The position numbers and the translations under genes are program-made. This document shows, one piece after another, positions 2,575 to 2,916 of a DNA stretch of 12,302 bases; the stretch's first letter is position 1, and each line of letters begins with the position of its first letter. Origin of the DNA: a virus (taxonomy: Duplodnaviria; Heunggongvirae; Uroviricota; Caudoviricetes). Location: the IMG/VR virus record IMGVR_UViG_2896607866_000011, one strand, 5' to 3'. The notes beneath the pieces are model-generated. The model made no database searches. It was not told the DNA's origin and was given only the letters and a program-made list of their open reading frames with translations.

Positions 2575-2916
2575 TCACCCACTGTGGTATATGCGTTGTG
2601 GTCTGCCAACTTTGCCGTGAACAATTTCAGCAATAATCAGATGGCGGCTGGCGCAATATTCAAGATAACGCCTGGCAGTGGTGCGGCTGATGGTCAGTGC
2701 CTGCGCCACCGTTTCTGCCGTATGTTGCACACCAGGCTCTTTAAACAGTTTTCGCACCGCGTTTAGCGTCAAGGGGTCAATGCCGGTCGGCAGTTCGTCT
2801 TTGGGTTCACCGCGAGCATAGGCATTAAACATCTCATCAATTTGCTTCTGGCTGGCGCTATCAATACTTTCCAGCATATGTTTACGCTGGCGGAAACGGG
2901 TTAGCGTTTGCCCCAG
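2575..2916 (-). pseudogene. dpiA: dpiA (citB) 3' fragment, codons 114-226 (HTH output domain), separated from its 5' part by the prophage
   Basis: Minus-strand translation LGQTLTRFRQRKHMLESIDSASQK...GRPQRIYHSG matches the DpiA C-terminus; reading frame ends abruptly at the Mu left end (2917). Confidence 0.9.

Follow-up and report, generated by a model that had tools for sequence, protein, structure and literature searches.

In a stretch of DNA of 12,302 nucleotides, called the window here, the gene for the response regulator DpiA (CitB) is present in two widely separated pieces. This raises the question of what divided the gene, and of whether the piece coding for the receiver domain still functions on its own. 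In E. coli, activation of the citrate-fermentation genes is described as depending mainly on CitA/CitB (DpiB/DpiA), and certain beta-lactams can elicit the SOS response through DpiBA (PMC9456408). An earlier note, made from the sequence alone, had attributed the split to a prophage and had proposed that the remaining receiver could still accept phosphate from the DpiB kinase.

The split dpiA gene and the inserted element

Both pieces of dpiA are read on the minus strand. The 3' fragment (2575..2916) codes for the linker and the DpiA-like HTH_64 domain through residue 226 and the stop codon, and direct reading of the sequence gave DpiA from Met1 on at positions 11959-12302. The two halves are kept apart by an element of 9,042 bp (2917-11958), which starts with TGTATTGATTCACTTGAAG, the Mu L end, at 2917 and finishes with GCGCCGCTTCA, the Mu R end, at 11958. 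The element is flanked by CCCAG at 2912..2916 (left copy) and at 11959..11963 (right copy), a 5-bp target-site duplication. When the element and one CCCAG were removed, joining 2575-2916 to 11964-12302, an ORF of 681 nt coding for a DpiA of 226 amino acids was obtained, and an exact-protein lookup revealed that this protein is identical to a common, widespread E. coli DpiA allele. The insertion point is located at codons 114-116 of dpiA. With Mu termini, matching CCCAG copies and an intact DpiA upon excision, the claim that insertion of a phage-derived element has inactivated dpiA is borne out.

The 5' half is read on into the element, forming a chimeric ORF of 127 codons (11919..12302, minus strand) which consists of 115 DpiA residues followed by 12 residues encoded by the Mu R end, EAAHEKRESVSR. 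The earlier note had correctly recognized this ORF of 127 codons as translatable and as matching a receiver, but had divided it into 114 and 13 residues; Gly115 is retained, because the first Mu base preserves its codon. Receiver and HTH_64 are not found on one polypeptide, since the Response_reg match lies on the 127-aa ORF and the HTH_64 match 9 kb away. With the receiver severed from the HTH domain, DpiA should be unable to activate its targets, and the allele would be null for transcriptional output.

The adjoining genes had been described as intact, and this holds true for both. The pagP gene (1..561, minus strand) consists of 186 codons plus the stop, its product differing from the K-12-type protein by a single exchange (W30R), and dcuC (1149..2534, plus strand, 461 codons) codes for a protein identical to HB101/K-12-type DcuC. 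Between the convergent dcuC and dpiA, a consensus scan identified a GC-rich hairpin (2543..2565) that is terminator-like on both strands. No Rfam match was obtained across the whole window.

A 5-bp duplication, TG...CA termini and the order of genes described below are the defining marks of transposition by Mu, the "mutator" phage. CCCAG also fits the sequence N-Y-(G/C)-R-N, the target preference of Mu. PHROG profiles, together with an alignment to the complete genome of SfMu, served to name the genes of the element. The left end (attL region, 2917..3153, plus strand) was assigned by alignment to Mu and SfMu, with window 2917-3154 corresponding to SfMu 1-239 at 82% identity; when its continuation past the adjacent IS1 is included, identity amounts to 92% for Mu over 447 nt and to 82% for SfMu. 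This IS1 (3154..3921, plus strand, 768 bp) is bordered by a 9-bp duplication, CAACCAGGC, at 3145-3153 and 3922-3930. A Mu-type repressor c homologue of 169 amino acids (4031..4540, minus strand) was identified by profile and alignment. It is followed by a ner homologue (4721..4957, plus strand), which has 78 amino acids as called in public genomes and is 68% identical to Mu Ner. The truncated transposase gene A' (4932..6566, plus strand) codes for 544 of about 663 amino acids, with 91% identity to MuA and SfMu A, and takes its TGA stop from the terminus of IS600; here, window 5100-6565 corresponds to SfMu 1437-2902 at 98% identity.

IS600 itself (6564..7827, plus strand, 1,264 bp) shares 99.8% identity with copies from the S. 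flexneri virulence plasmids pWR100 and pCP301. Beyond it, window 7826-10881 aligns to SfMu 32618-35684 with 94% identity and window 10877-11958 to SfMu 36064-37146 with 96%. SfMu 2903-32617 remains unmatched, so that about 29.7 kb are missing with IS600 in their place. The right part contains the 3' part of the tail-fibre gene S (7828..8544, plus strand, 94% nucleotide identity to SfMu), the tail-fibre assembly genes U (8547..9080, plus strand) and U' (9109..9636, minus strand) and the alternative tail-fibre gene S' (9638..10624, minus strand), the latter three assigned by profile. Of gin (10718..10915, plus strand), only the first 55 codons or so match the invertase, by profile and SfMu alignment, and 379 bp are deleted internally relative to SfMu (35685-36063). 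Then follow com (11009..11197, plus strand, 62 amino acids), mom (11148..11843, plus strand, 231 amino acids, the exact protein being present on 877 contigs) and the outermost 50 bp of the Mu right end (11909..11958, plus strand), from which the chimeric ORF derives its final 12 codons and its stop.

The element thus resembles Mu and its Shigella relative SfMu, both of the genus Muvirus, in its termini, in the target duplication and in its gene order, with c-ner-A' at the left and S-U-U'-S', gin', com and mom at the right. It differs from them in that about 7 kb of about 37 kb remain, with A truncated, B and the middle region absent, gin deleted internally, and IS600 and IS1 present within the remnant. 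The designation "prophage" therefore describes the phage origin of the insert correctly, but not its state, since the insert comprises, apart from IS1 and IS600, no more than about 7 kb of Mu-like DNA, and not a complete, inducible phage with functional A and B. With A truncated and B absent, the element should not be able to move by itself, and it is best described as a grounded Mu/SfMu-like transposable-prophage remnant (2917..11958, plus strand). A further difference concerns the immunity region. Identity of the repressor to its counterparts is as low as 36% for Mu c and 30% for SfMu c, which suggests a heteroimmune relative with a distinct immunity type as the ancestor; among about 50,000 phage records, no nucleotide match was found for the repressor, operator and ner region except for the 3' end of c. 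A search with an approximate pattern for gix, the recombination site of Gin, gave no site at three or fewer mismatches; either the pattern may be inexact, or the left site may have been located in the deleted part of S. From an inverted-repeat search, only U/U' and the IS1 ends were recovered.

Distribution of the insertion and state of dpiB

The window is a segment of an S. flexneri chromosome; it has 3 mismatches in 10,384 positions to an NCTC S. flexneri chromosome (L009/L012). The exact 127-aa product was identified on 699 contigs (780 index blocks), and a C-terminal ORF of 100 amino acids on at least 1000 contigs, with the sources naming S. flexneri in both cases and annotating DpiA or a response regulator. 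The exact left junction of 36 nt is present in S. flexneri SFBU1023 and also in a chromosome of 4.44 Mb labelled E. coli ECMA0423. It was also considered whether the junction is a feature of E. coli K-12 or laboratory strains, but this was rejected, since 0 of 5,426 complete E. coli RefSeq genomes run from dpiA into a Mu end. An apparent match in HB101 turned out to be a separate event, namely IS1 in dpiB. Like the split described here, dpiB::IS1 of HB101 is an independent insertion of a mobile element in the same operon and in the same pagP-dcuC-dpiA-dpiB-citC neighbourhood; in HB101, however, the kinase gene is interrupted near its 3' end, dpiA is intact, and the inserted element is an IS rather than a phage.

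Seven long loci were compared, which had been picked by the look-up tool for differing neighbouring gene calls, a choice that favours split genes. The right junction is common to all seven, while the state of the remnant varies among them. IS1 at the left-end site is specific for a lineage and is absent in SFBU1023, L001, L002 and L004. In L004, L005 and L008, c-ner-A' were lost through a deletion adjacent to IS600, and IS1 is present in S'; an IS1-mediated origin of the L004-type deletion was considered and dropped, since the L end is uninterrupted to about window position 3967, where IS600 follows. In L006 and L007, an IS1-associated rearrangement links mom-com-S' to the integrase/modABC/galE region, and the two dpiA halves are no longer adjacent. 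Among long contigs, the exact A' protein was found only in the NCTC genomes, both with a doubly interrupted dpiB. The same right junction next to differing remnants indicates that the insertion into dpiA is the oldest of these events and marks the clade.

The earlier note had recommended checking whether dpiB is intact. The dpiB gene of the window's own strain lies outside the window, so that its state is deduced from near-identical genomes. Lesions were scored against the intact allele of 552 codons in L007, which is identical to a common E. coli allele. In the two chromosomes that match the window almost perfectly (L009/L012 and L010/L013), dpiB carries two nonsense codons, Q39* and Q361*. 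L004, L005 and L008 have all lost 1 bp at codon 491, which lies upstream of the GxGxG motif of the ATP-binding domain, and L006 contains Q223*. A full-length dpiB, and with it a partner kinase that could be functional, was identified only in the L007 type. Exact-sequence counts gave 590 contigs for the frameshifted DpiB of 508 amino acids, 35 contigs for each of the double-nonsense fragments and 11 for the Q223* fragment, so that dpiB is broken in 636 of the 699 contigs carrying the 127-aa DpiA', or about 91%.

In the gene calls, dpiB (8374-10032) and dpiA (10001-10384) overlap by 32 nt, dpiA beginning before dpiB ends, and early stops in dpiB should for this reason be polar and lower the translation or transcription of dpiA. 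The cit structural genes are mostly open and are damaged sporadically among the loci, with IS1 in citF of L010, a split citT in L006, and damaged citG and citD in L008. This fits a pathway that is no longer used.

The two fragments of DpiA

Pfam identified a Response_reg domain at residues 8-117 of the 127-aa ORF with 71.8 bits at a cut-off of 30.2. By alignment to the structures 5lwk and 5lwl, the phospho-acceptor pocket is retained with E11, D12, D57, T85 and K107, and D57 falls on the Asp that has been exchanged for Ala in the variant structure 5lwl. The nearest solved receiver of the CitB family, 5lwk, aligns to DpiA residues 6-124, which places the end of helix alpha5 about nine residues past the break at 115. 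After residue 115, QTLTRFRQR is replaced by EAAHEKRESVSR, so that hydrophobic positions of alpha5 are exchanged for a polar, Mu-encoded tail; the helix keeps its first few residues only, with the C-terminal two-thirds absent. An AlphaFold2 single-sequence model of the 127-aa ORF had a mean pLDDT of 55.7, with residues 96-127 below 50, and is too poor to judge alpha5 or the fold.

The detached 3' fragment contains the whole HTH_64 domain, as shown by Pfam. An internal Met127 gives rise to the ORF of 100 amino acids (2575-2877), which is the one called in genome annotations. A promoter and terminator scan of 2500-4750 gave consensus-level matches only and is neutral with respect to read-through into the 3' fragment.

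On these grounds several readings of the locus other than that of an inactive split gene were weighed. An error of assembly or a chimera, with dpiA intact in the living strain, was allowed for in the earlier note, and the IS1 and IS600 repeats could in principle mislead assemblers; no support for this was found, and it can be set aside with near certainty, because the Mu termini are perfect, the 5-bp duplication matches at both ends, the same junction was recovered from hundreds of draft assemblies as well as from independent complete chromosomes, and a separate catalogue entry for the truncation rests on genome sequences from 2002-2006. The proposal that the chimeric ORF serves as a stand-alone receiver, taking phosphate from DpiB as a sink or decoy without transcriptional output, has in its favour the translatable ORF with its Response_reg match, the conserved acidic pocket with T85 and K107, and the intact dpiB in L007. 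In addition, the 345-nt N-terminal fragment is invariant among six loci, an observation of little weight, since about two changes would be expected at the local diversity. In these features the fragment resembles CheY-like single-domain phosphate sinks, which also are receivers without an output domain. In contrast to them, it was born by truncation, its alpha5 is incomplete with the polar tail substituted, and dpiB, the gene for its cognate kinase, has become a pseudogene both in the window's lineage and in most other carriers; moreover, the nonsense codons upstream should be polar on dpiA. A role as a sink is therefore very unlikely, and the earlier note's suggestion of continued phosphate transfer from DpiB to the fragment was not upheld. 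To judge from the sequences, a kinase-receiver pair could exist in a minority of strains, those of the L007 type with an intact dpiB.

For the other fragment, it is conceivable that the 100-aa protein is expressed by read-through from the phage c gene and acts as a kinase-independent DNA-binding protein. Here, c (4031-4540) and 2575-2877 have the same orientation, the scan showed no terminator-like hairpin on their strand in the stretch between, the HTH_64 domain is complete, and the ORF is called on many contigs. On the other hand, 768 bp of IS1 intervene in the window's lineage, inspection of the sequence revealed no obvious ribosome-binding site before Met127, L004-type strains are devoid of c and its promoter region, and in L006 and L007 the fragment has been relocated elsewhere, all of which makes such a protein highly improbable. 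The 127-codon ORF, in turn, is most likely a non-functional relic produced by accidental read-through into the Mu right end, because the kinase is broken in most carriers, alpha5 is cut, and the operon stops upstream should lower its expression.

The decay of dpiB itself might be adaptive. Inactivation of DpiBA and citrate fermentation might be favoured in Shigella, being pathoadaptive or a remedy against a harmful orphan kinase, so that dpiB knock-outs were selected. Three independent knock-out lineages in one young clade are in line with this, as is the finding that each Shigella species in a catalogue from 2011 has a different lesion in the cluster (PMC3218036). Among the seven loci, dpiB contains eight substitutions and one deletion; one substitution is synonymous, seven alter the protein, and three are nonsense mutations, compared to about 3.3% expected per random substitution (P ~0.002). 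When only C-to-T changes were considered (6 of the 8), the chance of a stop per site was 8.7%, giving P ~0.011. However, the sample is tiny, with seven loci that were picked for differing gene calls, one of the three nonsense mutations struck a gene that was already dead, and the density of variable sites in dpiB (9 in 1659 nt) equals that in citC-citE (11 in 2275). Relaxed selection also predicts convergent decay. The nonsense excess is thus suggestive only, and selection for loss is a minority reading, which we consider unlikely. Its specific form, in which an orphaned DpiB would be harmful by cross-talk to non-cognate regulators or by futile signalling with the truncated receiver, so that its knock-out was selected repeatedly, is quite improbable; if true, it would explain both the three independent knock-outs and the nonsense excess.

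History and meaning of the locus

The best explanation overall, which we hold with high confidence, is that a Mu-like insertion split dpiA in an ancestor of S. flexneri, that the element and the system have decayed since then, and that the receiver fragment is a relic. In the ancestor of the clade, a Mu-like phage, a relative of SfMu and Mu with its own immunity region, would have transposed into dpiA by a MuA-type reaction, duplicating CCCAG. An IS600-associated deletion would then have cost the element the 3' part of A, gene B, every replication, lysis and head gene and most tail genes (about 29.7 kb). The internal deletion of gin may have occurred during erosion of the remnant, and IS1 presumably inserted into the left end later, in the window's own lineage. 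After the loss of dpiA, dpiB would have been inactivated at least three times independently, by separate lesions in different S. flexneri lineages, with the cit genes being damaged sporadically. The whole pattern is ordinary reductive evolution.

The pseudogene as such occurs throughout the clade and is already catalogued, which the earlier note had missed, along with the Mu-type transposition behind the insert. In Table S1 of Feng, Chen and Liu (2011), dpiA (b0620) is listed as "TH113" in S. flexneri 2a and 5, a code for a 5' truncation through residue 113 (PMC3218036). The entry agrees with the split described here in gene, species and position of the break (around residue 113-115), but is silent on the Mu insertion, the surviving 5' half and the duplicated target (PMC3218036). 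The same table lists dpiB as "del", whereas dpiB is present with point lesions in the genomes examined here (PMC3218036). For further lesions in the cluster, it gives dpiB st394 in S. boydii (SBO), a deletion of the whole region in S. dysenteriae (SDY), and citC i56 in S. sonnei (SSON), with citC i217 in S. flexneri 5 (PMC3218036). A paper in which PCR and Southern blots revealed cryptic SfMu remnants in numerous serotypes of S. flexneri gives no locations of the remnants and does not name dpiA as a site (PMC4406740). In the searchable literature, no paper was found that links the dpiA truncation to a Mu-type insertion. The type of event is textbook knowledge, both as Mu mutagenesis and as gene decay in Shigella; what is added here is the repeated decay of dpiB after the insertion into dpiA, and the junction ORF as a trap for reads derived from MuA adaptors.

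The latter concerns the use of S. flexneri genomes as references. The 50 bp with which the element ends (11909-11958) have exactly the sequence of an oligonucleotide for MuA that was named "Mu right-end adaptor" in a paper from 2014, and the Mu end makes up 40 bases of the chimeric ORF. MuA transposomes are the basis of the nanopore rapid barcoding kits, and the rapid-PCR primer tails, CGTTTTTCGTGCGCCGCTTCA, are the last 21 of those 50 bases. By the insertion into dpiA, S. flexneri references therefore carry a Mu right end inside an ORF annotated as "response regulator DpiA". In a study of fish tissue from 2022 with SQK-RBK004, 8,938 of 9,031 bacterial reads were assigned to one S. flexneri "response regulator/DpiA", in the interval 4,265,154-4,265,537 of CP045522.1 (PMC9380665). 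This interval has 384 bp, the length of the chimeric ORF, and in locus L004, from the S. flexneri chromosome CP054892.1, the 127-aa gene is found at the same coordinates. Judging from these correspondences, it was probably residual adaptor reads mapped to the Mu end, and not Shigella transcripts, that were behind the "dpiA" signal. Untrimmed MuA adaptor reads can thus be mistaken for transcripts of S. flexneri dpiA.

With respect to physiology, the earlier note had pointed to consequences of the loss of DpiA. An altered control of citrate lyase and of the beta-lactam-induced SOS response is reasonable to expect by analogy to E. coli. The DpiA phenotypes of E. coli, citrate-lyase induction and beta-lactam SOS, should accordingly not be assumed for S. 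flexneri. The DpiBA system is decaying as a whole in Shigella. Together with its regulon, it was lost by different lesions in every Shigella species, which makes it an example of reductive evolution, and the S. flexneri clade can be recognized by what was apparently its first lesion here, the Mu-type insertion.

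Lesions in the kinase gene dpiB

The gene for the partner kinase of DpiA, dpiB, is located just past window position 12302, at locus coordinates 8374-10032 in L004-L010, seven of the public loci compared with the window. In these loci, the inactivating lesions of dpiB were found to vary by S. flexneri lineage, being Q39* together with Q361* (L009 and L010), a 1-bp deletion at codon 491 (L004, L005 and L008) or Q223* (L006), and dpiB is intact in L007. Three of the eight substitutions identified in dpiB are nonsense mutations, which is above the neutral expectation (P 0.002-0.011, for a small, non-random sample of loci).

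In E. coli HB101 (L003, NZ_CP184671.1, 4825-7260), an IS1 element is inserted close to the 3' end of dpiB and separates the final ~33 codons of the gene; dpiA is intact in this strain. The dpiB::IS1 allele is an independent mobile-element insertion in the same two-component operon, present in a common laboratory strain.

The dpiA junction in other genomes and in sequencing data

In two S. flexneri chromosomes (L006 and L007; locus coordinates ~11980-20384), an IS1 element in the alternative tail-fibre gene S' links the part of the remnant with mom and com to a phage integrase and to the region modABC/acrZ/modEF/galE. As a consequence, the dpiA halves have ceased to be neighbours in these chromosomes, and the arrangement points to an IS1-mediated chromosomal rearrangement. 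A dpiA::Mu junction of the S. flexneri type is also present in L001, a 4.44-Mb genome deposited as 'Escherichia coli strain ECMA0423' (CP178302.1). Its identity to the window is only ~98%, with numerous 1-bp gaps, and it is probably a Shigella-like genome labelled E. coli, an error-rich assembly, or both.

At the right end of the Mu element, the last 50 bp (window 11909-11958), which lie partly within the ORF at 11919-12302, are identical to the 'Mu right-end adaptor' employed in combination with MuA. MuA is the enzyme in nanopore rapid kits, and the RLB primer tails of these kits correspond to the final ~20 nt of the adaptor sequence. In a study from 2022 using kit SQK-RBK004 (PMC9380665), 99% of the bacterial reads mapped to a 384-bp S. 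flexneri 'DpiA' ORF, the same ORF as window 11919-12302. The 'DpiA' signal in that study was probably derived from the adaptor and not from Shigella RNA.

For the truncated transposase gene A' (4932-6566), the stop codon TGA is formed by the initial three bases of IS600 (6564-6566). Hence, the 'transposase' of 544 residues found in the annotation of some genomes is a junction artefact as well.

Gene content and immunity region of the remnant

Outside the remnant, PagP carries a W30R exchange compared to the K-12-type protein (codon 30, window 472-474). Assuming a signal peptide of 25 residues, the exchange affects residue 5 of mature PagP; the remaining ORF is intact. In the gin-com-mom region (10718-11843), gin has an internal deletion of 379 bp, and com and mom are still full-length. 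The exact Mom protein was identified on 877 contigs. Expression of mom in Mu requires a late activator. Since the gene for this activator falls within the 29.7 kb lost from the remnant, mom is presumably silent.

The immunity region (3931-5099), which spans most of the repressor gene c, the operators and ner and extends into the 5' end of A, gave no nucleotide match among ~50,000 phage records. The repressor shares only 36% identity with Mu c and 30% with SfMu c, yet at least 1000 contigs of S. flexneri encode it. The region represents a Mu-like immunity type, encountered here solely in the form of this remnant.
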